Shown here piece after piece: positions 312 through 57,608 of a stretch of DNA of 64,000 nucleotides. Both the position numbers and the translations under genes were made by a program. The notes under the pieces were generated by a model. It saw nothing but the letters and a program-made list of their open reading frames with translations. It was not told the DNA's origin and made no database searches. Positions within the stretch are counted from its first letter, which is position 1. The number at the start of each line of letters is the position of its first letter. The stretch lies in IMG/VR virus record IMGVR_UViG_3300015214_000024, positions 9,787-73,786 of that record. One strand, given 5' to 3'. Origin of the DNA: a virus. Its lineage: Duplodnaviria; Heunggongvirae; Uroviricota; Caudoviricetes.

Positions 312-697
312 TTGGTTGACTTAGCATCAACCAGATGCTAGAAGAAGGAATACAAAGGGGCGGTTGCAAACGTCCTGGAGTTGTCGACAAGCCGAAAGGT
401 TTGGAGCCTGTCGTCTATTAGCCAGCGGTGTTCGAAAGCTTCTGGTTCAGGTAAGACGCCACCTCTTGTATAGGGGAAAAGTGGGGTTCGAAGCCCACCA
501 GGCCTTACGATCTGTGCCCAAGACCACTAGGGCCTTGTTAGGGTGGCACTGAAGGAGAAGGTATTTTTACGTCTTCCCGGAGGTTTTGAAAGGGTGTGTA
601 GAAACCGGCCAGCCATCAATGGCTCGTGGAGGAAGCCTCATCTTAGGTTGAGTGCAGGTACATAGAAGCGTGTGCCGGACCCACTTTTTAGGAGATT

Positions 698-979
698 GTG
701 ATGCGAGTTATTCTTTTTGCTTTGGCAGCACTAGCACTTATCCCAGCAGGGATTTGGCTCGAATTTGTCCATCCGGTCAATTCGATCACTGCTGACTTGG
801 AAGCCGATGGGGTAACTGATATCAATCTCCAGTATCGTATGTTCAGCGGCACGATTTTTACCCGCTGCAACCACGAACACGCAACCATCCGTTCGTTCAC
901 CGGCATCAAAAATGGCCGCTATGTGCAGGGTATTTCCTGCTATGCGCCTCTTTGGGGTTCCACACATTGGTTTGATTGA
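698..979 (+). CDS. hypothetical small protein with hydrophobic N-terminus (93 aa)
   Basis: AGGAG 7 nt upstream; N-terminal signal/TM-like segment. Confidence 0.5.
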   Translation: MMRVILFALAALALIPAGIWLEFVHPVNSITADLEADGVTDINLQYRMFSGTIFTRCNHEHATIRSFTGIKNGRYVQGISCYAPLWGSTHWFD

Positions 980-2387: not shown

Positions 2388-2978
2388 ATGGCTACTGCAA
2401 TTGAAAAGCTTCAGAATGTTATCGCCAAGGTCGGTGATGTCGACAACGCCGGCGAGATGATCGCACAGGGCATCAAGGCTCGCAAGAAGGCGGACCTGAA
2501 GGTGTTGGGCTTCACTGCAATGTCGGCGACGGTGGCAACGGACGAAGGCGACACGCTTCGCATCGTGTCCAAGCGTGATGCGGCTGATGCTCAGTTCCAG
2601 GGCTTTACGAAGCGCAAGACGTCCGTTATGTTACCCAAGACCGAGACGGTGGCGGACCTGGATGGTTTCCGGATCGACAAGATCGAGCAGCTGGTGCCGC
2701 TGAAGACTGTCATCGGCGACGACAATGATGCATTCAACAGCTGGCTGGCTCGCTATGCAGGTGCTCGTTCGACGGGCAAGGCAACTCGCGGCGCTCGCGA
2801 TGAAGCTGCTCCGGCATCCGTTCAGAACATCGTCCACGTCGGCAACCTGCGCGGTCTGGTCAACAAGATGGTCCAGTTCAATGCCGGCGCAATGGCGATG
2901 ACGTTCGATCGCTTCTCGGTCCGCGAGAACCAGGACGGCACGAAGCAGATCGTGATTACCGATCCCTTCAACGCCTGA
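2388..2978 (+). CDS. hypothetical protein (196 aa), strong RBS, GC-rich codon usage
   Basis: AAGGAGAT RBS; clean ORF; 9-bp hairpin GGGAGTCAA/TTGACTCCC downstream (2985-3030). Confidence 0.7.
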   Translation: MATAIEKLQNVIAKVGDVDNAGEMIAQGIKARKKADLKVLGFTAMSATVATDEGDTLRIVSKRDAADAQFQGFTKRKTSVMLPKTETVADLDGFRIDKIEQLVPLKTVIGDDNDAFNSWLARYAGARSTGKATRGARDEAAPASVQNIVHVGNLRGLVNKMVQFNAGAMAMTFDRFSVRENQDGTKQIVITDPFNA

Positions 2979-3052
2979 AACAAAATGGGAGTCAATGAAA
3001 TAAAGTAGTTGACTCCCATTCATCCAGGCCATAGAAGACGAATATCAAATGG

Positions 3053-3173
3053 GCCCGCGTAGCACAAGCGGCTAGTGCGCTCTTAGACTTTACCCGAGGT
3101 AGGCCACCGAGGGGCTTGGATAGGCCATCCAATGCGTCTGAGTGAGATTCCAGTTCGAATCTGGACGCGGGCA
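3053..3173 (+). ncRNA. tRNA-like RNA (121 nt): 7-bp acceptor stem, D-arm, T-arm with TTCGAAT loop, but 47-nt insertion in place of anticodon loop
   Basis: GCCCGCG...CGCGGGC acceptor pairing; GCAC/GTGC D-stem with GG loop; TCCAG-TTCGAAT-CTGGA T-arm; 9-bp extended anticodon-like helix 3080-3088/3136-3144. Confidence 0.45.
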
Positions 3174-3332
3174 GCAGTATAGAAGGCCGAAAGGCAGAAG
3201 TAAAACGAGGCGACTGAGCGCGCCTATCCACGGGACGGACGACTACGCGCGGTAGGTAATCAGCCCTTGGAGGACTATACTGGCACCCATATCCGTGGAT
3301 GGGCTTCCACGGAAGCACGTGGATGGAGAACA

Positions 3333-3554
3333 ATGGCGAAGCGATCATTTTGGCAGCCAACTGGTGGCGGCTACAATGTGTTCTATGCGGAATACAGATC
3401 CCGCGAGGATCCTACAATCAAACTGTGGAAACGATGCTCCTCCGGCAAGGAACGTGAGGAGTTCATTCGTGAGCAAAGCTTGATCATTCGGCGGTTTGAG
3501 ACTGAGAAAGAGTATCTGGATTTCTACAACTTTCTGTCGACATTAGTGGCATAG
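3333..3554 (+). CDS. hypothetical protein (73 aa), TAG stop
   Basis: internal ATG with GGAG-like RBS; preceded by TCCGTGGA hairpin; ends in rare TAG. Confidence 0.45.
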   Translation: MAKRSFWQPTGGGYNVFYAEYRSREDPTIKLWKRCSSGKEREEFIREQSLIIRRFETEKEYLDFYNFLSTLVA

Positions 3555-3583
3555 CCTGCTAGTACGATTCAAAGGAGATTCAT

Positions 3584-3934
3584 ATGCAGGTTGAAACTAA
3601 ATTCATCGCCAAGGATGGCAAGAAGTTCGACACTCAGCCTGAAGCTGAAGCCTACGAGGCTGAGCTGGATCGGAAAGCTGATGAGCGCTATACCAAATAT
3701 CTGACCAGCTCTGCTGGCAAGCGGCTGCTCCAGGACCACAGTTCCACGGAAGAGGGTTATTGGCACGCCATTGGAGAGAGCGACGATCCTGGGATTGGCG
3801 GTGGACGAGGACCTGACCTTGGAATCTACAAGGGCCGGCTCGTTGATGTTATTCGCAAGGTAACGGCTATGAATGCCTTCTGGTCCTGGGGTGGCGGTGG
3901 CTACATTACCAAGGTCAATGTGACCGAACTCTAA
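3584..3934 (+). CDS. hypothetical protein (116 aa), Gly-rich C-terminus
   Basis: AAGGAG RBS. Confidence 0.65.
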   Translation: MQVETKFIAKDGKKFDTQPEAEAYEAELDRKADERYTKYLTSSAGKRLLQDHSSTEEGYWHAIGESDDPGIGGGRGPDLGIYKGRLVDVIRKVTAMNAFWSWGGGGYITKVNVTEL

Positions 3935-3993
3935 ATTGACAAAATGTAAACTGAATGTTACCATTCGGTTGAATACTTTTGGAGATTTCAGAG

Positions 3994-4158
3994 ATGGAAA
4001 CTAAGGTTGTCAAGCCTTTTACTAGTTCAGAGCTAGAACGAATCAAGAAGCTTGCGAACGAATACCGACCCTCAATGGATAAAACAGTTGTCCACGCTTG
4101 GGGCGAAGACGTTGCTAAGCTTCTTAGAAGCTATCTCACGCGCATTGGAGAGCAGTGA
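3994..4158 (+). CDS. hypothetical small protein (54 aa)
   Basis: GGAG 9 nt upstream; TGATG coupling to next ORF. Confidence 0.4.
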   Translation: METKVVKPFTSSELERIKKLANEYRPSMDKTVVHAWGEDVAKLLRSYLTRIGEQ

Positions 4159-4346
4159 TGTTCAACGTGTATCCTTGCGAGCTAACGTACACTAGAACTA
4201 CGAAGACGGGCATTCTAGCAGGCATTCCGTGCCCTTGCATTATCGGTGTCGCGTCCAAGAAGGACGGTGAGAAACTGTTTGCTGATTTGGTCAAGAACAA
4301 TCCAGACATCTCATTTACAAATCCAAAGATCAATGAGCGAAAATAA
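4158..4346 (+). CDS. hypothetical protein (62 aa)
   Basis: ATG overlapping upstream TGA. Confidence 0.5.
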   Translation: MFNVYPCELTYTRTTKTGILAGIPCPCIIGVASKKDGEKLFADLVKNNPDISFTNPKINERK

Positions 4347-4348
4347 TT

Positions 4349-4394
4349 CTTGACCTAATTCCAGATCCTGCTAAAAGGGTCTGGTAACAAGGAG
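4349..4394 (+). promoter_or_regulatory. promoter/leader cassette copy B (TTGACC-N16-TGcTAAAAG + GGTCTGGTAACAAGGAG)
   Basis: near-identical to copy A. Confidence 0.45.
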
Positions 4395-4400
4395 AAAGAA

Positions 4401-4718
4401 ATGTCTCGCACTCATCGCCGGCATCATCCTAAGACCACCAAGTGGGCTCGACGCGAAGTCGAAGGTTACACGTTCTGTGGTTGCCGCTATGCTTTCGAGG
4501 ATAACAGCGATATGAGCCAGCGCCACACGCTCAGCATCCTGCGCGGTGATGATGGCCGTATCCGCTACGACAAGTGCGCTGGTGCTGTCTCGGACAACGA
4601 GGGTAACTGGAAGCTCAACACTTGGGACGAGTCCCCTAGCAAGCACAATGATGCCCACCGTCACCGCCGCCGCGCTGACAAGAAGCTCATTCGCAGCCAG
4701 CTCAAAGATATGGATTGA
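4401..4718 (+). CDS. hypothetical basic His/Arg-rich protein (105 aa)
   Basis: conserved leader + RBS. Confidence 0.6.
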   Translation: MSRTHRRHHPKTTKWARREVEGYTFCGCRYAFEDNSDMSQRHTLSILRGDDGRIRYDKCAGAVSDNEGNWKLNTWDESPSKHNDAHRHRRRADKKLIRSQLKDMD

Positions 4719-4751
4719 CAACCCGTGTGTAAGAACGTAATCAAGAACACG

Positions 4752-5492
4752 ATGGCCCGTCTGCCCTGGGAGAAGAAGGCAGAGTTCAATATCCGGCTCA
4801 CGCTAGTGCGGGCTGCTAAGCGGCAGCGGCTCTGGGTAGAGCAAGATGGCAAATGTCACTACTGCGATCAAGAAACAGTATTGCCCAGGCCAGGACAAAA
4901 CAACCGTGGCGGCAATCTGGCAACGTTAGACCACATCATTACACAGAGCAATGGTGGGACTGATAGCCTCAACAATCTGGTCGTCGCCTGCCATACTTGC
5001 AACAGCAACCGCCTTGATATGGATTATGAAATTTTTTATAATCTAATGAAGACTCCTGGTGCTTGGAAAGAACATTGTGCTGAAATGGCCCGGCAGAAAG
5101 CGGCTCGTGATGAAGAACGTCGCAAAGCAAACCTTCGCCGTCACGAAGAACTCCTGGCAATGGAAAAAGCTGCCGCATCTGCTCGCCAAATGGAACGGCT
5201 CCGCAAACACGCTCCGAATGTGATCAAATTTGCTCAGCGTGAGGGTTTTATTCTTCCTACTGATCCTGAAGAGCGTATCCAATGGGCTATCAATTATCAT
5301 CTTGAACAAGCTCGGCTCCACAAAATGTTCGGTCCTAATGGTGACAACCTTTTGAAGGATTGGCTCCATCGATCAAACTTCGCACCACGGAAGGATGGCC
5401 GTGGATGGGTAGCTATCCAGGAATGCTCTTCCAGGGACCCTCTTCCGTGGAGGGACTTGACTGGAGAGACGGAATTCTATATTATGAATTAA
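4752..5492 (+). CDS. HNH homing endonuclease
   Basis: CHYCD...LDHIITQSNGGTDSLNNLVVACHTCNSNR HNH motif; ends 3 nt before tRNA. Confidence 0.7.
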   Translation: MARLPWEKKAEFNIRLTLVRAAKRQRLWVEQDGKCHYCDQETVLPRPGQNNRGGNLATLDHIITQSNGGTDSLNNLVVACHTCNSNRLDMDYEIFYNLMKTPGAWKEHCAEMARQKAARDEERRKANLRRHEELLAMEKAAASARQMERLRKHAPNVIKFAQREGFILPTDPEERIQWAINYHLEQARLHKMFGPNGDNLLKDWLHRSNFAPRKDGRGWVAIQECSSRDPLPWRDLTGETEFYIMN

Positions 5493-5494
5493 TC

Positions 5495-5572
5495 GCAGGC
5501 GTAGTGCTCAGTGGCAGAGCCGGGGTCTCTAAAACCCGTCGGTCGTGGGTTCGATGCCCACCGCTTGCACCA
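5495..5572 (+). tRNA. tRNA with anticodon CUA (candidate amber suppressor), CCA encoded; atypical 4-nt spacer between acceptor and D stems
   Basis: acceptor GCAGGCG/CGCTTGC (one G-U), D-arm GCTC-AGTGGCA-GAGC, anticodon loop CUCUAAA, T-arm GTGGG-TTCGATG-CCCAC, A73-CCA, then T5. Confidence 0.5.
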
Positions 5573-25625: not shown

Positions 25626-25979
25626 TCATTTTTGGATGATCAACCTACACCCTTCCTTGCAAGCATCGACTAGCCGATCATAAACGTCAGGCATAATGTT
25701 AATGCATCCATTAGTCACTCGAACTCTGACTGTTGGGTTATTAGCTTGGAGCCTCCAAACTCGACGCTCACTCGGCCTAAGTGTCCAAACACGATGAATA
25801 GCAAAAACTGTGGAAGGAGATTCATCATACTTCAAGACATCGCCACCATATCCAGGCGATTCAGTATAGCGACGGATGATCTGATACGTTCCAGGAGTCG
25901 TGCGATCGCCCACCAATGCTGGGTAGCACTGATGGGCGAAGCATAGGGTCGCAGCAGTTAAGCTAACGAAAATGTCCAA
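25626..25979 (-). CDS. L,D-transpeptidase (YkuD) catalytic-domain protein
   Basis: TPGTYQI...AIHRVW...TNGCINI motif. Confidence 0.6.
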   Translation of the reverse strand: MDIFVSLTAATLCFAHQCYPALVGDRTTPGTYQIIRRYTESPGYGGDVLKYDESPSTVFAIHRVWTLRPSERRVWRLQANNPTVRVRVTNGCINIMPDVYDRLVDACKEGCRLIIQK

Positions 25980-27838: not shown

Positions 27839-28513
27839 TTAGGCAACAAAAACGCAATAAGATTTCATTTCTGGGGTCGGACTATTGACATATTGAATAT
27901 ATCTAGGATCGTATTCCAACGCTTTCCATATGTCATCTTCTGTCTGATCAGACAAATATTGGAAATAAGATGTATCGTTTTCAAAGGCTTCGCGGCGAGC
28001 GCGTGGGCACCATTCAATTCTTCGATCACATATTAGTGAAGGCTTCTTGCGAATAGCAATGATTTGGAATTCTTCGTCAGCCGTCGCAGAATTTAAAATA
28101 GTGTCTGGATTTTCTTCAAACAGCAACTTCCAAAGACTACGTGATGGATTTTTGATCTTTTTAAACACCTGACCAGCAGTCAAGGTCCCGTGCTTTGCGG
28201 CTGCCATCTGAACCGTCTCTGTTGGCTCATCAATAAAGCCAATCAGACCAGGGTCTTCATAGATCGCCTTCAGGCATTCATCCTCGGTAGGATTTGCAAT
28301 GTATTGGATATTGGCGTGGTTGATCGCAAGAAGAATCTGTCTCAAAATAGGAGTGCGATCAACCTTTTCTTTTTTCGAAATCCATTCAGTCAGCTTATCA
28401 GCTTCGTGCTTAGTAAGCTGATTTGGCGGGACCATTTTGTTCACCAGATATTCCAGTCCTGCCTCAGGCAGGATGGTTATCATATTAAAAAGATCTCGAA
28501 TGGACATCGTCAT
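27839..28513 (-). CDS. DUF4116-like repeat protein (paralog 1 of 5)
   Basis: repeats; C-terminal PEMKSY motif shared with neighbours. Confidence 0.6.
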   Translation of the reverse strand: MTMSIRDLFNMITILPEAGLEYLVNKMVPPNQLTKHEADKLTEWISKKEKVDRTPILRQILLAINHANIQYIANPTEDECLKAIYEDPGLIGFIDEPTETVQMAAAKHGTLTAGQVFKKIKNPSRSLWKLLFEENPDTILNSATADEEFQIIAIRKKPSLICDRRIEWCPRARREAFENDTSYFQYLSDQTEDDIWKALEYDPRYIQYVNSPTPEMKSYCVFVA

Positions 28514-28544
28514 ACATCACCTATATGGTGACGCGTGTCATATG

Positions 28545-29333
28545 TCAACCACAAATAATAGCAGTAGCAATCATTTCTGGAGTTGGATCGTTTATAAAAT
28601 CAATCGACTTAGGTTGGTTCATAATAGCTGACCACTTGACTGACCGGCTAGGAGATTTAACTCGTGAAATGTTAGATGGGCCGTGCTTGACATATTCTAT
28701 TGATGCTGCCTCTGGCGGGTTTTTGATTTTGAGATAATAGCTAGGGTCATTGGCAATAGCAATAACCATAGCTTCTGGACAAGGACGACGTATTGAACGA
28801 ATAAGATGATGATTCTTATTCATTGCATAAAGTTGTTCAGCTACAGTTGGATTACTAATGTGCTGGATGTTTTCTGGATAACGCTCAAGTGCTATCTTAC
28901 GCACAGTTTTGGTTGGATGCTTGAAGAAACAAAACGACATCGGTGCCGAACGTAATGCAAGCATCTGTAATTCAGTCGTCTGTTGCTTAACAAACTGAAT
29001 TGCGTTACCGTCATTACCTACCGCAGCAAAAATCATCGCCTTCGTAGGATTACGAAAGTTTTGAAGATTCATACCATACAACGCACAAGATTTAACAAGT
29101 GCGTCTGGATGAATGTTCCGAATCATCTTATAAGCATTCTTTGGATCTTTTTCAATAGCAAAGAGCTGAAGATCTGTCTCAGGATAGCGGATGAACTGAA
29201 TTGCTTTCCAGTTGTTAGTTACTGCTACAAGCTGGACTGGTCGTGGAGGATTCTTCATCCACTTGATAGCGAGCGGATCAGAAGCCAATTTCAGTATAGC
29301 TTGCTCAATCTCCGTCTGAGACCAGCTTTGCAT
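28545..29333 (-). CDS. DUF4116-like repeat protein (paralog 2)
   Basis: NPPRPVQLVAV..NWKAIQFI repeats. Confidence 0.6.
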   Translation of the reverse strand: MQSWSQTEIEQAILKLASDPLAIKWMKNPPRPVQLVAVTNNWKAIQFIRYPETDLQLFAIEKDPKNAYKMIRNIHPDALVKSCALYGMNLQNFRNPTKAMIFAAVGNDGNAIQFVKQQTTELQMLALRSAPMSFCFFKHPTKTVRKIALERYPENIQHISNPTVAEQLYAMNKNHHLIRSIRRPCPEAMVIAIANDPSYYLKIKNPPEAASIEYVKHGPSNISRVKSPSRSVKWSAIMNQPKSIDFINDPTPEMIATAIICG

Positions 29334-30048
29334 AGCTTACCATCTCCGGTGAAGGATTTCGAATCTTCTTGATGAGAGTCCCATCAGCGTAGAGAGCAGC
29401 CCAACAGCATTCTTCAGTCTGATTGACCATAAGCTCAATCTGATCAGGGTATTCAGTAATATGACGCAGAGCAATGTCTTCGTCAATCTCGTTCAAATAA
29501 TGGATGCCATCATCTGGACGTTCTTTGAGGATGAATTCCTGATGATCACGATGAGGATGCTTAACCCATTCAATTGAACAAGGATTTTCCTTGATCATCA
29601 TCGCGACCATTTCATATGTAGGCTCATTGATGAACTGAGCATTTTTGTGATCGTGTCCAATCGCAATTACTTGCAACACGTGATCTGGATTCTGAATGTG
29701 CTTGATGGCATCACCATCACGAGTAACTGCTCGATGCTGTTGAGCGTACGAAGGATTTTCGATGAGGCTAATACAATTGCCATTGATACTAATGGCTGAA
29801 TCAAGGACCTTCTGATCAATGTCAGAGATCATTTCGACCAATTCAAAGATACCATCGCGATCGATATAGCCCTGTGCCTTGATGGCTTCCTGCTGCTCAA
29901 GCACAGTAGGATTATCAAAATACTGGATAGCTGTAGGAGAACGCTGGATAGCCGCCATACGGAAATCTTCGTCAATTAGATCCTTGGGGACCATCCTGAC
30001 GAGGTTACCATTTTGTTTGATCAAGTTCAGGGCGTATTCGCGGTCCAT
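29305..30048 (-). CDS. DUF4116-like repeat protein (paralog 3)
   Basis: LIKQNGNLVRMVP...AIQRSPTAIQYF repeats. Confidence 0.6.
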   Translation of the reverse strand: MDREYALNLIKQNGNLVRMVPKDLIDEDFRMAAIQRSPTAIQYFDNPTVLEQQEAIKAQGYIDRDGIFELVEMISDIDQKVLDSAISINGNCISLIENPSYAQQHRAVTRDGDAIKHIQNPDHVLQVIAIGHDHKNAQFINEPTYEMVAMMIKENPCSIEWVKHPHRDHQEFILKERPDDGIHYLNEIDEDIALRHITEYPDQIELMVNQTEECCWAALYADGTLIKKIRNPSPEMVSYAKLVSDGD

Positions 30049-30096
30049 AACAATTCCTCTAAATTTCCATATCTATACTGGATTAATTGTTATGCG

Positions 30097-30750
30097 TCAA
30101 CCACAAAGTATAGCGTAGCTTTTCTGTTCTTTGGTCAGGTTCATAATTCCATATTCTTGCGGGAATTCTTGAACCAAATCCCACCATTGATCAGTGGTTA
30201 GATTGTGATTCTTGAGATCAATTTTGCCGCGGCGGAATGATTGATTCTTACCCATAGCTATTGCCAGCTTGATAGCATAGACATCGGCATTAACAACCTC
30301 ATTGATTAAAGAATAATTATCATCCAATGCCAATAGTTGGGCATCAAGGCACGGATGTTTGATTCGAGTTATAGCTTTCGAAATGTTGGCTACTGCTGCC
30401 TTTTGAACAGTTTCAGACGGTTCTACGATCAAACCAACTAAAAGGCCATTCTTTGAAATAGCCTCAAGCTGGACTTCTTCATCCGGATCTGGAATATATT
30501 TGAGAGCTCGGGGGTCATTCCTGACAGCAAAGAGCTCAATAGACTTATCCTGTTTCGGGAGGCCACGCAAAGCAACGATATTTCGTTTGATGGCCAACTT
30601 GACCAATTCGGGACTCGGATTGTCCAGATGCCAAATGACCTGATAATTGATTTCAACAGCCTTAACCAGGAACTCTGGCGAGGGGTTTTGTATTCGAGAA
30701 ATTTGGGTCGGATCATTCCGTATCCGACCCAGCTGTAACGTTTTCAACAT
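30097..30750 (-). CDS. DUF4116-like repeat protein (paralog 4)
   Basis: repeats; C-terminal EQKSYAILCG. Confidence 0.6.
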   Translation of the reverse strand: MLKTLQLGRIRNDPTQISRIQNPSPEFLVKAVEINYQVIWHLDNPSPELVKLAIKRNIVALRGLPKQDKSIELFAVRNDPRALKYIPDPDEEVQLEAISKNGLLVGLIVEPSETVQKAAVANISKAITRIKHPCLDAQLLALDDNYSLINEVVNADVYAIKLAIAMGKNQSFRRGKIDLKNHNLTTDQWWDLVQEFPQEYGIMNLTKEQKSYAILCG

Positions 30751-32795: not shown

Positions 32796-32870
32796 TGGTG
32801 CGGGGTGAGGGATTCGAACCCCCAACCTACCGGTTATGAGCCAGCTGCTCTACCGTTGAGCTAACCCCGC
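32796..32870 (-). tRNA. tRNA-Met (anticodon CAU; elongator or Ile-lysidine type)
   Basis: cloverleaf: GCGGGGT acceptor, D GCTC/GAGC, loop CUCAUAA, T-loop TTCGAAT, CCA encoded. Confidence 0.85.
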
Positions 32871-32904: not shown

Positions 32905-33351
32905 ATGTCAACGTGCCATCACCCAAATTGTGAAAAAGTTTTATCTGGCCATCAAAAGAAATATTGCTCTAAAAGTTGTGCTACAAAAATGAATAATACT
33001 GGGAAACGGCGACACGGAAAACCAGTCAACATTTGCCCAGTTTGTTTATCACCTACAAAAAGATCATCAAGCACTTATTGTTCAAACAAATGCCAAAATT
33101 CGGTAAGAAGAAAATCCGAAAAAGAATTATTATCAAATAATGCTGCTCGACAATCAACATACCGAGCGAAAGGCTACAGAGCCATTGCCCCCAATGCTGA
33201 TCGTGATTTAATTAAAGAAATATATAAAAACTGCCCTGAAGGATATGAAGTGGATCACATCACACCAGTATCAAAAGGTGGTTTACACCACCAAGATAAT
33301 CTTCAATATCTAACGATTAGTGGAAATCGTGCTAAAGGAAATCGAATTTAA
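32905..33351 (+). CDS. HNH endonuclease
   Basis: EVDHITPVSKGG..HH.DNLQ HNH motif; adjacent to tRNA. Confidence 0.7.
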   Translation: MSTCHHPNCEKVLSGHQKKYCSKSCATKMNNTGKRRHGKPVNICPVCLSPTKRSSSTYCSNKCQNSVRRKSEKELLSNNAARQSTYRAKGYRAIAPNADRDLIKEIYKNCPEGYEVDHITPVSKGGLHHQDNLQYLTISGNRAKGNRI

Positions 33352-33629
33352 CGTCTTGTTGCGACTTTTTCAGTAAATTTGGTTTTTTGTATGCGTAGTA
33401 TTTCTGCGGTAATTGCTTTAAGCTCTTGGATTGTATTTTCCAAGTCGCTAGTTTTATCACACAATTCGTCAAACTTCTTATCGCATTTTTTCACAGATTC
33501 ATTCCTTTTAGGAATATCGATGTTTCTATTTATTATTTTTTTAAGCGATATACTCTTCCAGCGCCAGCATTTTAAGTTGAACACGATCCAGATCGTGCTG
33601 ACACGCATTACGCTCACGAAGCTCAGCAT
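33348..33629 (-). CDS. hypothetical coiled-coil protein; start uncertain (overlaps 3' end of HNH gene)
   Basis: ORF only. Confidence 0.3.
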   Translation of the reverse strand: MLSFVSVMRVSTIWIVFNLKCWRWKSISLKKIINRNIDIPKRNESVKKCDKKFDELCDKTSDLENTIQELKAITAEILRIQKTKFTEKVATRR

Positions 33630-34005
33630 ACCAAAGAGCCATCTTATAATATTTATTGATCAAAACTTGGCGACATTTGTACCGACGAGTAGACGGATCA
33701 TAGCCTAGCTTTTCATTAACTCTCTCGAGCATCTCGATCTCGAAATCAGTCGGCAAACGTTCGCCTTTATCCTGATTGCAGTCATAATGACTGAGTAGTA
33801 GATTACCAGCATTGACTTGATACAAATGAAGAGGATAGACGTGATCAACCGTGACATCGTTTGATACAAGTCGTTCTCTGCAAATCGGACAGGTATGATC
33901 CTGCGCTTTAAGCATCAAAGGAACACCAACATTGGCTACAATCAATCGAGCCTGGTGCCGAAGCTTCCTATACTTTGCTTGGTTTATCTTTGCCATAGCA
34001 CACAA
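33541..34005 (-). CDS. HNH endonuclease
   Basis: CPICRERL...VDHVYPL...NLLLSHYDCNQDKG. Confidence 0.65.
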   Translation of the reverse strand: MCAMAKINQAKYRKLRHQARLIVANVGVPLMLKAQDHTCPICRERLVSNDVTVDHVYPLHLYQVNAGNLLLSHYDCNQDKGERLPTDFEIEMLERVNEKLGYDPSTRRYKCRQVLINKYYKMALWYAELRERNACQHDLDRVQLKMLALEEYIA

Positions 34006-37714: not shown

Positions 37715-37797
37715 TGGTGCCCCTGGCCGGACTCGAACCAGCACTCCGAAGAATTCGATTTTGAGTCGAACGCGTCTACCAATTTCACCACAGGGGC
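37715..37797 (-). tRNA. tRNA-Leu (anticodon CAA), long variable arm
   Basis: acceptor GCCCCTG/CAGGGGC, anticodon arm TTCGA-CUCAAAA-TCGAA, T-loop TTCGAGT, CCA encoded. Confidence 0.8.
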
Positions 37798-46390: not shown

Positions 46391-47512
46391 ATGCGTCCCA
46401 TCGAAGTTTCTGAAGCAATTAGCGTTTACGCTACTGCTAACGTCCCCGTTATGCTGTGGGGACAGCCGGGCGTTGGCAAGTCGGACGTTGTCCGCCAGCT
46501 TGCTGCCAAGACCCCGGGCAAGTTCCTCAACCCGCTGACGGGCAAGAAGGAACGCAAGGTTTTCGACGTTCGCCTCGCACTGCTGGATCCGACCGACCTG
46601 CGCGGCATTCCCTACTACGACCCCGAGATGAAGACCGCCCGCTGGGGCCAGTCCTGCATCCTTCCGATGATGGGCCGTGAGGAAGACGAGGATGCTATCC
46701 TGTTCCTCGACGAGATCAACTCCGCTCCCCCGGTTATCCAGGCAGCCGCTTACCAGCTTGTCCTCGACCGCAAGGTTGGCGAATACGAGCTTCCGAAGGG
46801 CGTGACGATTATCGCTGCTGGTAACCGCCAGTCCGACAAGGGCGTGGTGTTCCAGATGCCCACTCCGCTGCTCAACCGCTTTGCCCACATTGACTTTACG
46901 GTCAGCAACGACGACTGGATCGAATTCGCGGTCGGCGCCGGCATCCACCCCAGCATCATCGGCTTCATCAACTTCAAGAAGGATATGCTCAACAAGTTCG
47001 ACAGCCGTGGCAAGAACTCCGCGTTCGCTACCCCGCGCGCCTGGGCGTTCCTGGACCGCGTTATCCGGGCTGCTGAAGCTGCTGGCACCAAGGACACGAT
47101 GATCCGCAAGCTCGCAGACGGCGTGGTTGGTGAAGGCGCTGCTGTTGAGTTTATGAGCTACCGCAAGTCCGCGGAGAAGCTTCCGAACCCGGACAGCATC
47201 CTCGATGGAACGCTGAAGAAGCTTCCGGAAGATGTCAAGCAGGATATCAGCATCCACTTTGCGCTCGTGACCAGCCTGGTTGCGGCCATCAAGGAACGCT
47301 TCGAGAACGCCAACAAGAACCCCAAGGACGAGAAGTTCGCGAAGGCTGGTGGTAACTTCCTCAAGTTCCTTAACACGGAACTCAAGGACGAGCTGACGCT
47401 GTTTGGCATCCGTTCAGCAATGAAGACTCACCAGGTTATGCTTGCTACTCTTCCCGAGTTCCGCACTGACGTTAACCAGAAGTTCCAGAAGGTGCTCTCA
47501 ATGGTTGGCTAA
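46391..47512 (+). CDS. MoxR/CbbQ/CobS-type AAA+ ATPase (AAA_5)
   Basis: Walker A GQPGVGKS, Walker B ILFLDEIN, sensor AAGN. Confidence 0.8.
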   Translation: MRPIEVSEAISVYATANVPVMLWGQPGVGKSDVVRQLAAKTPGKFLNPLTGKKERKVFDVRLALLDPTDLRGIPYYDPEMKTARWGQSCILPMMGREEDEDAILFLDEINSAPPVIQAAAYQLVLDRKVGEYELPKGVTIIAAGNRQSDKGVVFQMPTPLLNRFAHIDFTVSNDDWIEFAVGAGIHPSIIGFINFKKDMLNKFDSRGKNSAFATPRAWAFLDRVIRAAEAAGTKDTMIRKLADGVVGEGAAVEFMSYRKSAEKLPNPDSILDGTLKKLPEDVKQDISIHFALVTSLVAAIKERFENANKNPKDEKFAKAGGNFLKFLNTELKDELTLFGIRSAMKTHQVMLATLPEFRTDVNQKFQKVLSMVG

Positions 47513-47622: not shown

Positions 47623-48870
47623 ATGAGTAATCCTACCGCATCCGAGATTATGACCGCAGGCCGGTTTTTTATGATGCAGAAGTTTCCGTTCTTCGCTTAC
47701 CTGCTCTTCAACCTCGAAGTTATTGAGCTCGGCGAGGATAACAATCCCTGGAAGCTTCAGACCGCTGCTGTTGACGGAAAGCGCTTCTGGTATAACCCTA
47801 GCTTCATCCAGGAAATTTACCAGGAAGGGCTCAAGGAGAGCAAGGAAATTGGTAACCACAAGGTGGCCTTCCTTTGCGCCCACGAAGTGATGCACTGTGC
47901 CCTTGGTCACTTGGGCCGCCGAATCGACCGCGATCCTGAAATCTGGAACCAGGCGGCAGACTACGCCATCAACGCGATGCTCGTTGAGGCGAAGCTCACT
48001 ATGCCCAAAATTGGTCTGTATGACAAGAAATACAGCGGTTGGTCGGCAGAAGAGATTTATGACGACCTGCTCAAGAATCCGGACAAGACCAAAGGTAAGT
48101 CCACGCTGGACGTTCACGCTGGCCAACCTGGCTTCCCTGGCGAGGGTGATGGCCAGGGCCAGGATCCTAATGGCGGCGGCGACCCGGCTGATGCCCTGAG
48201 CCCTGAAGAGCTTCAGGACCTCAAGGACCAGTGGGAAGAGAATATGGTCCAGGCTGCCCAAAACTGCAAGGACGCTGGTAACATTCCGGCCGGCTTTGAG
48301 CGACTGATCAAGAAGATCACTGAGCCCAAGGTTAAGTGGAACGAATATATCGAGACTGTCATCAAGTCGCTCGTGCGTTCGGACTACACCTGGCGCATTC
48401 CGAACAAGCGGGTGTTCGCTAACGGCATTACTATGCCCAGCTTGGACTATGATGACTCCGTGGAGATTGGCATTGCGATCGATATGAGCGGATCCATTAG
48501 CGACGAAGAAGCGGCTGTTTTCCTTGGGGAAATTAAGTCCATTATGGGACAGTTCACTAACTTCAAGATCCACATCGCTTGCTTCGATAGCGCTCTCCAC
48601 GCGCCCGCAACGCTGGAGAGTGAGGAAGACCTGGATAACTACGAACCCAAGGGCGGTGGCGGTACCACCCCTATGGCGTGGTGGAACTGGGCTATGAAGC
48701 AGGATTGGTACGATACGGTCGGTACTGTGATTATGTTCACGGACGGCTACATTGGTGGTCCAGAGCACTGGGGTCCGGGTGAGGAGAAGAGCCCTAACAC
48801 GATTTGGCTCGTGAAGGGCAGTGACTACGAGGGCCCATACGGTACCACGATCCTCTACGAAAAGCTCTAA
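47623..48870 (+). CDS. vWA-domain protein with N-terminal zincin-like HExxH domain (DUF2201/CobT-like partner of MoxR ATPase)
   Basis: HEVMHCALGH; MIDAS-like IAIDMSGSISDEE. Confidence 0.7.
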   Translation: MSNPTASEIMTAGRFFMMQKFPFFAYLLFNLEVIELGEDNNPWKLQTAAVDGKRFWYNPSFIQEIYQEGLKESKEIGNHKVAFLCAHEVMHCALGHLGRRIDRDPEIWNQAADYAINAMLVEAKLTMPKIGLYDKKYSGWSAEEIYDDLLKNPDKTKGKSTLDVHAGQPGFPGEGDGQGQDPNGGGDPADALSPEELQDLKDQWEENMVQAAQNCKDAGNIPAGFERLIKKITEPKVKWNEYIETVIKSLVRSDYTWRIPNKRVFANGITMPSLDYDDSVEIGIAIDMSGSISDEEAAVFLGEIKSIMGQFTNFKIHIACFDSALHAPATLESEEDLDNYEPKGGGGTTPMAWWNWAMKQDWYDTVGTVIMFTDGYIGGPEHWGPGEEKSPNTIWLVKGSDYEGPYGTTILYEKL

Positions 48871-53041: not shown

Positions 53042-55354
53042 ATGAAGATTGAAGAAGCAGGCGTTGAGACTTTCTCGCTTGGTCAGAAGGAAGTTTCCGT
53101 TGCCAAGATCCAAGCAAGTGCCAAAGCGTTTGAGATCCTGAGCTCAAGCCTTTATTCCAACAACATTCTCGCAATCATCCGTGAGCTTTCTGCAAATGCG
53201 AAGGACTCGCACAAGGCTGCTGGCTGCCCTGAGAAGCCGTTTGACATTCAGCTGCCCAATAAGCTGGACCCTAGCTTCAAGGTTCGTGACTACGGTGTAG
53301 GTATGGATCATCAATTCGTGATGACTCGCCTGAACACTTACTTCGATTCTACCAAGAACGACAGTAATGAAGAAATCGGCGGCTTCGGTCTCGGCATCAA
53401 GTCAGGCTTCAGCTATACTTCCAGCTATATGATCGTCACATTCGACGGCACGACACGCCGTGTCTACGCTTTCCAGATCGGCGCCAGCGGACTTCCTGAG
53501 ATCAGCTTCCTGGCTGAAACTCCGTCGACTGAGCCTCGCGGTGTTGAGCTCAGCATTCCGGTTATGGACAAGGACTATGACCGCTTCCGCGAAGAAGCTA
53601 TCGAAGCTCTGACGTTCTACGAACCCAAGCCCAACATCAGCGGCGTTGATGCTTCCGCGTTCGACATTAAGCCTTTGTTCCAAGGCACTGGCTGGAAGAT
53701 TTACCAGAATCCTGGCCGCCTCAAGAATGAAAACTATGTCGAGATGGGCAATGTGATCTATCCGGTCATTGAAGAAAACAATCCTTACGACGAATCTCGC
53801 CACTACCGCCACCATCGCCGCGGCCGCGGCGCAGATATGATTATGGTCTATAGCGCCGGCATTGGTGAGATTGACATCACTCCGAACCGCGAGCAGATCA
53901 AGCTGACCGATCGATCCAAGGCCCGAATCACCAAGTTTGAAGAAACGGTAACTGAAGAATTGATGGCCACTATCCAAGGCTGGCTGGATAAGGAAACTGG
54001 TACGCTTTGGGAAGTCCTGCGCGGCGATACGGTGCGCCGTATCCACGACCAGTCCTACTTCTTCGAGAGCCGCAAGGTTGATCTGAAGAAGCTCAAGTAT
54101 AAGGGCTATCAGATTATGGTCGGCGAGTTCCGTTATACTGAAAAGAGCCCGGCTGCTGACAAGGTGGTAAAAGGTCACACCTTGCAAGAGCAGTATGGCG
54201 AGATTCGTATGGATGAGCATCGGATGGCTCATTATGGCATCCAAATCTCAGCCCGGCATTCGGAAAGCGTTGGTATCATTATTGGCACTCCTGGTTGGAC
54301 GGCGAAACTGAACCAAGCCGGCGCTCGTAAGTTGATCAATCAGACAAAGAAGGTGCTTTATCTGCTCGACGTCAAGGCTGCTGATCAGGCCGATGTTATT
54401 GCCGGTCTCAATAAAACCTTCCCGGACTTTGCTGATAACATTTACAATTGGGATGATTTCAAAGCTGGGATCAAGGCAGCCAAGCCGGAAAATGACTACT
54501 ATACTTATGACCTGAAGGATGGTAACTCACGTTATTATAATGAAGGTAATAAGAAGGAGTTCAATATCAAGGACTTCAGCAAGAAGAAGACCATTTATTA
54601 TGGCACGTATAAGCCTAAGGCAAATAACCTTAGGAATTACCATTACAACCGCGAGTCGACGCGAATTCAGGAAATCTTGAGTAGCTGTTATGACGAGACC
54701 TATGATGAGATCCTGGCCAAGCTGAACGGCGAGAAGGTTGTATATGCTTTCCTTGAATCCCAGGTCAAGGAACTGGAAGCTGCAGGATTCAAGCTGGTGG
54801 ACTTTGTTACCACTTTCGAAGAACTGCTCCATCAGGTCGCCGTTGAATTTGCTGCTGAACGTCCTACAATGACGCTGAAGGAATACCTGAAGCCGTTGCA
54901 GGAAAAGAACCCTGAGATTAGCATCTCCACGTTCTACAAGGCAGTGAAGCGTTGGGCCCGCGAATGCGGTATGGAGGACGAGTATCAGCTTCTCCTCAAG
55001 CTGAACGACCCGTCATCATCCTCTTACCGTGCCTCGGCTAATGACCAGCTGTTCCGCCAGGTTCACAAGATGACCATCAAGGAATATGTGAAGAAGCACA
55101 ACCTCAAGCCGGCCAAGCCGACCAGTAACCAGTTCGCGATCGACCTCCGTGACAAGGCCCCGCTGCTCAGCTACTTGATCACTCGCTATAGCGTCCCTGA
55201 TGTTATTGATTATGTGAAGAAGGAAGTGGCTGGTATTGTGAAGGCTCCTGCTCCGGCTGCTACCGTGAAGGCTCCGCCAAAGCGTAAGCCTAGGCCGCAA
55301 CCGGTGGTGATTCAGACCATCAACCCGTTGTCGCTTATCCCGACAGCACAGTAA
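53042..55354 (+). CDS. rIIA: rIIA-like protein (GHKL ATPase N-domain), paralog 1 (770 aa)
   Basis: collinear with T4 rIIA: ASAKAFEILSSSLYSN, IRELSANAKDS (N-box), VRDYGVGM (G1), IGGFGLGIKS (G2). Confidence 0.8.
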   Translation: MKIEEAGVETFSLGQKEVSVAKIQASAKAFEILSSSLYSNNILAIIRELSANAKDSHKAAGCPEKPFDIQLPNKLDPSFKVRDYGVGMDHQFVMTRLNTYFDSTKNDSNEEIGGFGLGIKSGFSYTSSYMIVTFDGTTRRVYAFQIGASGLPEISFLAETPSTEPRGVELSIPVMDKDYDRFREEAIEALTFYEPKPNISGVDASAFDIKPLFQGTGWKIYQNPGRLKNENYVEMGNVIYPVIEENNPYDESRHYRHHRRGRGADMIMVYSAGIGEIDITPNREQIKLTDRSKARITKFEETVTEELMATIQGWLDKETGTLWEVLRGDTVRRIHDQSYFFESRKVDLKKLKYKGYQIMVGEFRYTEKSPAADKVVKGHTLQEQYGEIRMDEHRMAHYGIQISARHSESVGIIIGTPGWTAKLNQAGARKLINQTKKVLYLLDVKAADQADVIAGLNKTFPDFADNIYNWDDFKAGIKAAKPENDYYTYDLKDGNSRYYNEGNKKEFNIKDFSKKKTIYYGTYKPKANNLRNYHYNRESTRIQEILSSCYDETYDEILAKLNGEKVVYAFLESQVKELEAAGFKLVDFVTTFEELLHQVAVEFAAERPTMTLKEYLKPLQEKNPEISISTFYKAVKRWARECGMEDEYQLLLKLNDPSSSSYRASANDQLFRQVHKMTIKEYVKKHNLKPAKPTSNQFAIDLRDKAPLLSYLITRYSVPDVIDYVKKEVAGIVKAPAPAATVKAPPKRKPRPQPVVIQTINPLSLIPTAQ

Positions 55355-55433: not shown

Positions 55434-57608
55434 ATGAAGATTGAAGAGCAGAAGGTTCCCACGTTCAATGTTGGACGCAAGGAAACGGCAGTTGCCTCGA
55501 TCCAGGCCAGTGCGAAGGCTTTTGAAATCCTTAGCTCGGGCCTCTACAGCGATGCTGAGTTTGCCATCGTGCGCGAGATTGCTGCTAACGCTTGGGATAG
55601 CCACAAGGCTGCTGGTTGCCCCGAGAAGCCCTTCAAAGTGCAGGTCCCTAACGGACTTGATCCTCGTTTCTGTGTCCGCGACTACGGCACAAGTATGTCA
55701 CACGAGTTTATGATGACTCGGGTTAACCGCTATTTCGATTCTACGAAGGCGGAAAACAACGACGAAATTGGCGGCTTTGGACTTGGCATCAAGAGTGTGT
55801 TCAGCTATGCCTCCAGCTTTATGATTTCCTGCTATATGGACAGCGTCCGCCGCGTTTATGTTTACCAGATTGGCGAAAGTGGCCTGCCTGAGATCAGCTT
55901 GATGGCTGAGACTGAGACTGACGAGCCAAATGGCGTGGAAGTCAGCATTCCGGTCAAGAGCGAAGACTATCAGAAGTTTTCAATCGCTATCCAGAAAACG
56001 TTTGCCTTTTATAAGGTCAAGCCTGAAATTGCTGGCGTGGAACTGGCCATTCCGGAATTTGACAAGCTTCTGGAAGCTGACGACTGGTTCGTTTGCCGTT
56101 GTCAGAGCATTTTCAATAAGGCTTCTTATATCGAGATGGGCGGCATTGCTTATCCGCTGGACGAACAGCTGACTGGCCTGCGTTCCTATTACAGTAACCA
56201 CCACACTCTGTTCATCAAGGCAGAGATTGGCGATGTTGATATCACTCCGAACCGTGAACAGATCAAGATGACTGAGCGCACTCGCAGATTTGTCAAGGAC
56301 AAGTTGAAGACCATTAACGACCAGGCTGAGAGCATTATCCAGGATCTGATCGATGCCCAAGGCCACACGTATTATTGGGACTTCATTGCTGAAGTGGTCA
56401 AGTATGATATTGATCTGCTCCGCAGCATCGGCTTCTCCAAATCCAAGATCACGTTCAATGGAAAGAAGTTTGACGACAATACGTTCACTATCCGTATTGC
56501 TCCCAAGCCGGCTCCTGAAGATCCAATGGATCCTAATTCGCCGATCAAGCAGCCTACCCTTACGCCGGAAATGGTCGAAGGCATCACCCGCTTTGGTGAA
56601 TGGTCACTGCACGATAGTGGTCGAGTTAAGAAGGATGAAGATCGCTGGAGTTATCAGAATGCTTGGAATTTTGATCGCTTCAACAAGCCGCGTCCGATTG
56701 TGGTCGCTGACGAAGCTTCAGTTCGTCGTATTGCCCCTTGGATGCGTTACAGCGATACTGACAAGATCATCCTGGTCAAAGTCGAGCCCGGTAAGATCAC
56801 TGATGTGATGGCCGCAATCAAGGAGCGTCTTCAGGACTTCAACAACATCCACGATGCTTCCACCGTGCATTTCGAGAAGGCACCGAGGGCTGCGGCTGCT
56901 GAGCGCAAGTATTATATGTACCACACCAGCACTTGGAATGAAGTTGTCCGCAAGGAAATGGATCTCGGTTCACTACCTAATGAGATCTACTATTTCCAGA
57001 CCGATGGCCGCCAGCGTAGTGAAGTGTTTGGCCGCACTACGGACTTTAACAAGGATGCGTCATTCATTGCAGTGGCTAGGACTTGGATCCCGAATGTTAG
57101 CTTTTACTTCCTCACAGAAGCAATGATCAAGAAGATTGAAAAGGCCAATCCTTCGGCAGTTTTGATCGAAACATCTGCCAAGCTGGCTGAAATGCTTGAC
57201 GACAAGGTTCGTGAAGCTGGGCAGAATTATGTTTCCCGCAGCCTTGAGGATATCAAGGCACCATTTGCTCGCTCGGGCGGCAGCTGGCGGACAGCATCTG
57301 CTCTTGACTTTTGGGCCAAAGAGTTCAATTTGTCCGATTATGAACAGGCAAAGAAGGATCTCGAAACCCACAAGCCGGATAGCAGCCTTGAGAAGATGTG
57401 CAAGCTGATCAAAGGCAAGACCATCTTCGAAATGTTCACAGAGCTTGGTGTCAATACGCGCAACGTCACTGTACCGAGCTTTGATAATATGCTGGCAAAG
57501 ATGCCTTATGTCTTTGCAATGGTTGATGACTATTCCGAGGAAGAAGTTGTGAACCATATTGGCGAAACGATGGGCTGGAAAAGAAACACCCAGCCTGTCA
57601 CAATTTGA
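55434..57608 (+). CDS. rIIA: rIIA-like protein, paralog 2 (724 aa)
   Basis: same GHKL motifs; similarity to paralog 1 is strongest in the N-terminal region that was compared. Confidence 0.8.
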   Translation: MKIEEQKVPTFNVGRKETAVASIQASAKAFEILSSGLYSDAEFAIVREIAANAWDSHKAAGCPEKPFKVQVPNGLDPRFCVRDYGTSMSHEFMMTRVNRYFDSTKAENNDEIGGFGLGIKSVFSYASSFMISCYMDSVRRVYVYQIGESGLPEISLMAETETDEPNGVEVSIPVKSEDYQKFSIAIQKTFAFYKVKPEIAGVELAIPEFDKLLEADDWFVCRCQSIFNKASYIEMGGIAYPLDEQLTGLRSYYSNHHTLFIKAEIGDVDITPNREQIKMTERTRRFVKDKLKTINDQAESIIQDLIDAQGHTYYWDFIAEVVKYDIDLLRSIGFSKSKITFNGKKFDDNTFTIRIAPKPAPEDPMDPNSPIKQPTLTPEMVEGITRFGEWSLHDSGRVKKDEDRWSYQNAWNFDRFNKPRPIVVADEASVRRIAPWMRYSDTDKIILVKVEPGKITDVMAAIKERLQDFNNIHDASTVHFEKAPRAAAAERKYYMYHTSTWNEVVRKEMDLGSLPNEIYYFQTDGRQRSEVFGRTTDFNKDASFIAVARTWIPNVSFYFLTEAMIKKIEKANPSAVLIETSAKLAEMLDDKVREAGQNYVSRSLEDIKAPFARSGGSWRTASALDFWAKEFNLSDYEQAKKDLETHKPDSSLEKMCKLIKGKTIFEMFTELGVNTRNVTVPSFDNMLAKMPYVFAMVDDYSEEEVVNHIGETMGWKRNTQPVTI

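Follow-up and report, generated by a model that had tools for sequence, protein, structure and literature searches.

Phage tRNAs and the host nucleases that attack tRNA form an active front in the conflict between phages and their hosts, and few phage noncoding RNAs have a known role there. The tRNA-like stable RNAs of phage T4 have gone unexplained for decades. A 64,000-nt stretch of phage DNA from IMG/VR record IMGVR_UViG_3300015214_000024, referred to here as the window, holds a tRNA-like element with a structured insert in place of the anticodon arm. The question considered here is what a phage might gain from a tRNA body that has lost its decoding end. The element is a clean case, in that its structure is supported by covariation.

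Architecture of the tRNA-like element

The minimum free energy (MFE) fold of the 121-nt RNA is a cloverleaf joined to a fork, with a free energy of -50.9 kcal/mol (z = -2.8). The body has the features of a canonical tRNA, namely a 7-bp acceptor stem, a D arm, a T arm, U8, A14, G18G19 and a UUCRA T-loop, and its arms follow each other in the normal, non-permuted order of a cloverleaf. At the site of the anticodon arm, a long helix leads into a three-way junction with two hairpins, H1 and H2, whose stems are 7-9 bp long and whose AGGCC pentaloops are identical. The long helix measures 8-10 bp among the relatives described below and 9 bp in the window element, where it includes one U.U mismatch (3081.3143) and one G.U pair. 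The coordinates of the element and of its surroundings are collected in Table 1.

Table 1. Features of the tRNA-like element and its flanks, in window coordinates.
Feature	Position	Strand	Basis or remark
Upstream ORF, 196 aa	2388-2978		Stop codon 2976-2978
Perfect 12-bp hairpin past the upstream gene	2984..3020	+	Conserved; compensatory changes in all related loci
Sigma-70-like promoter candidate: TTGACT, 17-nt spacer, TAGAAG (3032-3037)	3009..3037	+	Read by eye
Whole tRNA-like RNA, 121 nt	3053..3173	+	Sequence reading, MFE fold, covariance model, ends in ARAGORN intron mode
Acceptor stem, 5' strand GCCCGCG	3053..3059	+	Partner 3166-3172, CGCGGGC; 7 perfect pairs
U8 A9 (3060-3061), D stem GCAC/GUGC, D loop AAGCGGCUA, G26	3060..3079	+	Invariant columns
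D-arm strands	3062-3065 / 3075-3078	+	Loop AAGCGGCUA, with A14, A15, G18, G19, A21
Long helix, 5' strand	3080..3088	+	Partner 3136-3144; replaces the anticodon stem
47-nt insert	3089-3135	+	Enclosed by the long helix
Three-way-junction strand UUUA	3089..3092	+	MFE fold and consensus
Hairpin H1, CCCGAGGU-AGGCC-ACCGAGGG	3093..3113	+	Pentaloop 3101-3105; stem covaries
Hairpin H2, GCUUGGAU-AGGCC-AUCCAAUGC	3114..3135	+	Pentaloop 3122-3126; stem covaries
Variable loop AGAU (3145-3148), then T arm UCCAG-UUCGAAU-CUGGA	3145..3165	+	
T-arm strands	3149-3153 / 3161-3165	+	Loop UUCGAAU
Discriminator A; next bases GCAG, no encoded CCA	3173	+	Sequence
Separate 123-nt structured RNA, directly 3' of the element	3174..3296	+	RNAalifold, 29 pairs, 10 compensated
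Downstream ORF, 73 aa	3333..3554	+	First ORF past the element

An earlier note, made from the sequence of this locus, had described the acceptor stem, U8, the D arm, the T arm and the discriminator A, and a reading of 2700-3600 placed all of these exactly where it had put them. The 9-bp helix that it drew around a 47-nt insertion has the position and the insert that were claimed for it, but is interrupted by the U.U mismatch and contains the G.U pair. Likewise, the hairpin with an AGGCC loop that it noticed in the insert exists, but is one of two. The surrounding gap, given as 300 bp, GC-rich and noncoding, is indeed noncoding and has a GC content of 54% versus 46% for the window; its size is 354 bp (2979-3332). 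The open reading frame that crosses the element looked spurious to the earlier note, and since the orthologs are 121, 122 or 123 nt long, no ORF can be conserved across it on either strand.

The earlier note could draw no canonical 7-nt anticodon loop with U33, and this was borne out in the window element and in its orthologs: a 5-bp stem with a 7-nt loop and U33 was sought in every variant and none could be derived. Because the element has no anticodon loop and is ~45 nt too long in that arm, we infer that it cannot act in decoding.

A coding reading was also considered. From an AUG at 3050 a frame can be followed in which UAG occurs three times, the pentaloops contributing two of the three. 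The loop-formed UAGs were tempting, as the phage carries an amber suppressor tRNA. This reading was rejected: the AUG is missing in one related locus (L002), the UAGs are unconserved (L005, L013, L008) and the lengths of the variants differ by 1-2 nt.

Relatives of the element

The upstream 196-aa protein was employed as a probe and gave 20 metagenomic homologs with identities of 97-47%, for 14 of which the contigs were fetched. The element is present in every fetched contig whose 196-aa homolog is at least 56% identical, ~70 nt past the stop codon of that gene. The three most distant contigs (L016, L017 and L026; 47-55% identity) have the same slot without the element. The search yielded 10 distinct variants of 121-123 nt, on metagenomic phage contigs and in the same slot throughout. 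All members of the family are contigs that were reached through the flanking protein, and the 10 variants come from one uncultivated phage clade. A covariance model built from the ortholog alignment (R1) found exactly one copy per genome at 103-139 bits, the window element scoring 139 bits.

Additional members were sought in other collections. When the element and the surrounding 3 kb were compared by BLAST with 50,697 phage records, no match appeared. In IMG/VR, neither the exact T-arm/acceptor string nor two degenerate patterns recovered further members, and nothing was found when the flanking proteins were used as probes. Two scans of JGI metagenomes and one of GTDB (one genome per species) returned chance matches only. 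The chance pattern matches in these scans lay in coding regions or in an ordinary tRNA-Pro.

Covariation and conservation

The consensus structure was calculated with RNAalifold from nine aligned variants. It is identical to the single-sequence fold and comprises 35 pairs, 20 of which show at least one double compensatory change. In the model-based alignment, standard pairs occupy 97.8% of the pair cells, versus 26-49% when the 3' partners were slid by 1-3 columns. The slid controls had 2-8 compensated pairs, and none of 500 shuffles reached the observed values of pairing and compensation. Covariation in related phages, which the earlier note had made decisive for its structure, is present at those 20 of 35 pairs and speaks for a real structured RNA.

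Covariation was seen in every helix but the invariant D stem. Acceptor pairs 5-7 change from G-C, C-G and G-C to C-G, U-A and A-U, while pairs 1-4 (GCCC/GGGC) are invariant across the variants. There are compensatory changes at seven of the eight modelled pairs of the long helix and at four of the five pairs of the T stem, where UUCGA is invariant. The tandem G.A of H1 in the window is replaced by A-U/A-U in L011 and L012. The G.U pairs fit an RNA from the + strand only. Moreover, the tertiary 15-48 (Levitt) pair covaries, being A15-U48 in eight variants and G15-C48 in L006 and L007 (position 48 is 3148), and this covariation argues for a true L-shaped fold.

The mean pairwise identity is 0.54 in the long helix, 0.61 in the H1 stem, 0.62 in the T stem and 0.68 in the H2 stem, and 0.91 in loop 2, 0.94 in the variable loop and 0.98 in U8-A9 with the D stem. 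The value for loop 1 is lowered solely by one row that is misaligned by one column. A direct count of the 20 loops in the ten variants gave AGGCC in 17, AGGCU in 2 and GGGCC in 1. Loop 1 is AGGCC, or AGGCU in one variant, and loop 2 is AGGCC, AGGCU or GGGCC. The starts of the two loops are 20-22 nt apart, the distance being 21 nt in most variants. The discriminator A73 is kept in 9 of the 10, L011 having U73. The stems drift via compensatory change and the pentaloops stay AGGCY, a pattern indicating selection for the shape of all helices, for the tRNA core, for the acceptor top and for the two loops.

Genomic surroundings

The 3' arm of the hairpin past the upstream gene carries a -35-like TTGACT (3009-3014), which forms the first half of the promoter candidate, and the tRNA-like element starts 15 nt downstream of that candidate. 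A motif of the form TTGAC(T/C)-N16-17-TAnAnn was found by eye at the same position in every relative. A consensus promoter scanner did not call the candidate because its -10 hexamer is without T6; TTGACy-N16/17-TAnAnn would correspond to a host-type promoter with a weak -10. The candidate sits among early-type genes.

The structured RNA that follows the element had no match in Rfam, and its own model (R2) found one copy per genome and none elsewhere. In L008-L011 the tRNA-like RNA is kept and the downstream RNA is absent; the two are separable adjacent modules. No terminator was found between the element and the downstream ORF, and for this reason the 73-aa ORF is probably co-transcribed with the element.

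The proteins on either side were examined as well. No match to the 73-aa protein was obtained from Pfam, PHROG or PDB sequences or by fold, and the idea that it is a strict partner of the element was rejected, as it is also encoded in L017, which is without the element. The 196-aa protein gave a confident AlphaFold model (pLDDT 89) that resembles the phage protein kinases of the T7 gp0.7 type. As a lead to the function of the RNA it was set aside, there being no evident link.

The source of the window is a large virulent phage with two rIIA paralogs, rIIB, several HNH endonucleases and an AlkB-like oxygenase. The identity of its proteins to those of phages in the reference collection does not exceed ~40%, and jumbo Pseudomonas phages and T4-like phages of Acinetobacter gave the best matches. 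The window encodes an Rnl1-like and an Rnl2-like RNA ligase, and ARAGORN identified three tRNAs: an amber suppressor (5495-5572), Met (32796-32870) and Leu (37715-37797). Rfam at its gathering threshold reported the Met and Leu tRNAs only. No phage CCA-adding enzyme was found among the subset of window ORFs scanned against Pfam and PHROGs. Hairpins with AGGCY loops are not enriched elsewhere in the window (11 vs 8.2 +/- 2.8 expected). A pair of such hairpins at 25750-25778 on the - strand was considered as an operator-like site and rejected, as it lies inside an ORF.

Proposed function

The element is probably the gene for a stable, non-decoding, tRNA-shaped noncoding RNA that resembles a natural version of the engineers' 'tRNA scaffold'. 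The structure is secure; the function can be suggested in outline. In the tRNA scaffold, as in the element, the body retains its acceptor, D and T arms, and a structured insert caps a lengthened anticodon stem. Engineered chimeras of this design (Ponchon and Dardel) undergo precise processing and modification in E. coli and are stable there (PMC3753655). The scaffold is man-made, whereas the element is natural, is conserved in a phage clade and has as its insert a two-hairpin fork with AGGCY loops. Evolution has kept the full tRNA body and has exchanged the decoding end for another conserved surface, which is the design of the tRNA scaffold.

In the scheme that we propose, the element, the downstream RNA and the ORF would be transcribed together by the host RNA polymerase from the upstream promoter candidate. 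The tRNA body would make the transcript a substrate for RNase P at G1, for maturation of the 3' tRNA end and for CCA addition. RNase P and the enzymes of the 3' tRNA end recognise substrates in which a 7-bp acceptor stem stacks on a 5-bp T stem and the elbow is intact. Position -1 of the element is G and not U, which counts against the scheme. The tRNA body may furthermore shield the RNA from decay.

The two GGCC loops, held on a rigid fork at near-fixed spacing, would be the working surface. They may bind a two-site (dimeric) protein, or may base-pair, either mutually or with another molecule. A two-site and probably dimeric partner is suggested by identical loops at a fixed spacing, and mutual or intermolecular pairing is conceivable because GGCC is self-complementary. 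In these loops, which hardly vary, the C-to-U changes that were observed would keep G.U pairing.

Two known systems resemble parts of this scheme. The operator of E. coli thrS presents two hairpins with the same loop as two sites for a dimeric tRNA-binding protein, and the pRNA of phi29, a ~120-nt phage RNA, contains a three-way junction and base-pairs from one molecule to another through two 4-nt loops. Neither has a known relation to the element in sequence or context. The hairpins of thrS imitate a genuine anticodon loop, unlike those of the element, and pRNA belongs to the packaging motors of phi29-like phages and is without a tRNA body.

The L-shaped body and the invariant acceptor top may engage a factor that recognises tRNA. 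Most likely, the RNA would be expressed early and would serve as a mimic or decoy, keeping a host tRNA-binding protein occupied or redirecting it. A role of this kind is plausible because the phage has tRNAs and RNA ligases and because host defences grip tRNA. Cas12a3 grips the acceptor stem, the T arm and the tail, and PrrC, VapC and PARIS target the anticodon loop (PMC12851939). Among the options raised in the earlier note, a tRNA-like decoy or mimic or a tRNA-derived regulatory RNA fits the results, and an intron-containing or permuted tRNA does not. A point against a decoy is that, if stoichiometric, it would face competition from a very large pool of tRNA.

The role may be specified further, although only tentatively. 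The RNA could be an effector whose GGCC loops clamp a dimeric host protein that binds or cleaves tRNA, or kiss so that a multivalent mimic is formed, and which in either form neutralises a tRNA-directed defence or takes over a tRNA-handling enzyme early. We consider this version less likely than not. For the question of how a tRNA body is used outside decoding, the element provides a small RNA with mutational handles, namely the two loops and the acceptor top.

Alternative explanations

The main alternative is that the element acts in cis as a punctuation or stability element. The tRNA shape would recruit RNase P and the 3' enzymes and set the 5' end of the downstream RNA, and the excised piece would be without function. 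The position of the element agrees with this explanation. In every locus that has it, the element separates the promoter-like site from the downstream RNA or ORF, and no terminator intervenes; in L011 it directly abuts the ribosome-binding region of the next ORF, and the distant relatives have the same slot without it. However, a processing signal for RNase P needs only an acceptor/T-arm minihelix and the elbow, and here the insert is selected as well, its loops being conserved, its stems covarying and the length held at 121-123 nt. In addition, the invariance of the top 4 bp of the acceptor stem is left unexplained. We consider the cis-acting explanation unlikely.

An aminoacylatable tRNA-like RNA that serves outside decoding is less likely again. 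Such an RNA would be charged independently of the anticodon, via G1-C72...C4-G69 and A73, and would be an amino-acid donor or would bind EF-Tu or another factor. The conservation of the first four acceptor pairs next to covarying pairs 5-7, the presence of A73 in nine of ten variants and the retention of the full L-shape determinants are in its favor. Nevertheless, an encoded CCA is absent in 10 of 10 variants, in which the discriminator is followed by GCA or AGC, unlike the three true tRNAs of the window (Met, Leu and suppressor), all of which encode A-CCA. The element also has neither G3.U70 nor a long variable arm. The discriminator is U73 in L011, the 15-48 pair is changed in L006 and L007, and the scanned ORFs of the window suggest no aminoacyl-transferase partner.

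Membership in a described family of tRNA mimics was considered for T4 species 1, for YrlA and the Y RNAs, and for a piece of tmRNA, and is improbable. T4 has two small non-decoding RNAs of similar size, species 1 (rnaC, 139 nt) and species 2 (rnaD, 119 nt). Like the element, rnaC is a phage RNA, stable in its case, with a UUCGAAU T arm and an acceptor-like stem at its end. However, rnaC folds without a D arm and with an imperfect acceptor stem, whereas the element has both arms and a perfect stem, and the T4 RNAs lie within a tRNA gene cluster, whereas the element stands alone behind its own promoter-like site. R1 gave rnaC 14.8 bits (E = 0.16), and the match was confined to the T-arm end. Homology of the element to rnaC or rnaD was rejected. 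The role of T4 species 1 RNA itself is still unknown (PMC3014915).

YrlA, also a tRNA mimic, has in common with the element its D and T arms, a set of conserved tertiary nucleotides and covariation at the 15-48 pair, and some YrlA RNAs are RNase P substrates and acquire CCA (PMC4201824). Its topology is nonetheless the opposite. YrlA is circularly permuted: the Ro60-binding stem, at the anticodon position, is made from the two ends of the RNA, and the stem that resembles the acceptor is closed (PMC4201824), whereas the element ends at the acceptor stem. The YrlA gene adjoins that of Ro60; no Ro60/TROVE domain was detected in the subset of window ORFs scanned against Pfam or PHROGs. A tmRNA joins its tRNA-like domain to a tag reading frame and pseudoknots; the RNA studied here is only 121 nt long, ARAGORN in tmRNA mode found nothing in the 10 variants and Rfam reported no tmRNA match. 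Indeed, no match to the element was found in Rfam 15 when 2950-3400 was searched to E<=10, at which level chance miRNA-type matches appeared near the element, on the upstream hairpin only.

The element belongs with T4 species 1, YrlA and the viral tRNA-like structures to the general kind of non-decoding tRNA-like RNA. No described family was found that has a complete, non-permuted tRNA core with a conserved two-hairpin fork as its anticodon end.

An intron-containing, split or permuted tRNA, which would give a normal decoding tRNA once processed, is very improbable. ARAGORN in default mode made no call at 3053-3173 in the window; in intron mode it reported a 'tRNA' at exactly these positions. 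The anticodons in this mode differ by ortholog (Arg GCG, Gln UUG, Pro UGG, Asp GUC/AUC and Ser CGA), with the 'intron' starting at positions 33-36. Because the anticodons differ among orthologs, the call is a forced fit; in a real intron-containing tRNA the anticodon would stay constant and the intron would diverge. The opposite is seen here, the loops being the most conserved part of the insert. U33 and a 7-nt loop are missing, and there is no bulge-helix-bulge, because the long helix is continuous and has no 3-nt bulges. The insert had no match to an Rfam intron, and at 47 nt it is far too small for the introns of bacterial tRNAs, which are group I introns of a few hundred nt. A permuted tRNA is contradicted by the order of the strands, which is that of a normal cloverleaf.

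A decaying tRNA pseudogene, the remnant of a tRNA-derived attachment site or a chance resemblance would explain why standard tRNA finders miss the element, but has a negligible probability given compensatory evolution in all five variable helices and a length and loops that are conserved where the flanking protein is only 56-66% identical.

The R1 model could be used to mine phage genomes for RNAs that tRNA finders and Rfam have missed. When it was applied to ordinary tRNAs, R1 gave weak matches of 26-40 bits.

A second structured RNA and the palindromes behind it

The ORF at 3333-3554 (+), the first one downstream of the tRNA-like element, is preceded by a second conserved structured RNA and an array of short palindromes (see table). 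The RNA is enclosed by a closing helix of 8 bp, CAGUAUAG/CUAUACUG. Inside are three further helices, and the long single strands GUAAAACG, ACGACUAC and GGUAGGUAAUCA are invariant. Of its 29 pairs, 10 are compensated according to RNAalifold. The RNA occurs once per genome, is absent from four related metagenomic phage contigs (L008-L011) and had no match when searched against Rfam. A possible role is that of a leader, or of a riboswitch-like element, for the 73-aa ORF.

The palindromes, which read CCATGG in most relatives, look like an array controlling translation or transcription. The final copy shares bases with the ORF's GGAG ribosome-binding site, and the copies are able to pair with one another, giving alternative hairpins. 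They could instead be operator sites on the DNA.

Coordinates of the features (window positions unless a related contig is named)
Feature	Position	Strand	Remarks
196-aa ORF	2388-2978	+	AlphaFold model, pLDDT 89
Conserved structured RNA, ~123 nt	3174-3296	+	directly 3' of tRNA-like element
CCAYGG palindrome, at least 3 copies	3296-3332	+	position shared by every relative, L016, L017 and L026 included
Different conserved sequence, ~75 nt	L016:1401-1480; L017:~690-765		slot after kinase-like gene
GIY-YIG (SegE-like) homing-endonuclease ORF	L007:3989-4687; L008-L010:~3868-4560
Amber-suppressor tRNA	5495-5572	+	anticodon CUA, CCA encoded
Met tRNA	32796-32870	-	flanked by HNH-type endonuclease ORFs 32905-33351 (+) and 33541-34005 (-)
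Four tandem paralogous ORFs	27839-30750	-	217-262 aa
AAA-type ATPase	46391-47512	+	phrog_1297
Protein with DUF2201 metallopeptidase-like and VWA-like domains	47623-48870	+	after AAA-type ATPase
Two rIIA paralogs	53042-55354; 55434-57608	+	adjacent, full-length
rIIB	57664-59184		next after both rIIA paralogs

The kinase-like gene and its downstream slot

The 196-aa ORF had no hit in Pfam or PHROG. Its AlphaFold model matches phage protein kinases of the T7 gp0.7 type (BFVD TM 0.6-0.66), and the product is likely a small host-takeover kinase. In two of the most distant relatives, L016 and L017, the hairpin and promoter-like site seen in the window recur in the slot after this gene. The different conserved sequence found there, CACAGGGCAUYGAUCC...GGGGCGURGUGGAACGGUGUAG..., was detected by neither the covariance model of the tRNA-like element nor that of the downstream RNA.

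tRNA genes and homing-type nucleases

The suppressor tRNA is directly preceded by an HNH endonuclease ORF (4725-5492) and is conserved at the same place in L002, L005, L006, L011 and L012. Since the Met tRNA also adjoins such ORFs, the tRNA genes of this phage tend to neighbour homing-type nucleases. Furthermore, some relatives carry the GIY-YIG ORF as an insertion immediately behind the tRNA-like element, reminiscent of segB within the T4 tRNA cluster; in L008-L010 this ORF stands in place of the downstream RNA and is adjoined by a late-promoter-like box, TATAAATA.

In a crude call of 91 ORFs, a TAG stop was found in only 8, several of them doubtful. Some TAG codons may be read as sense in this clade.

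Other gene arrays

All four tandem paralogs share their matches, PHROGs of unknown function (phrog_5925, 17056 and 25923). The ATPase and DUF2201/VWA-like gene pair also occurs in jumbo phages such as PA5oct, at ~40% identity.
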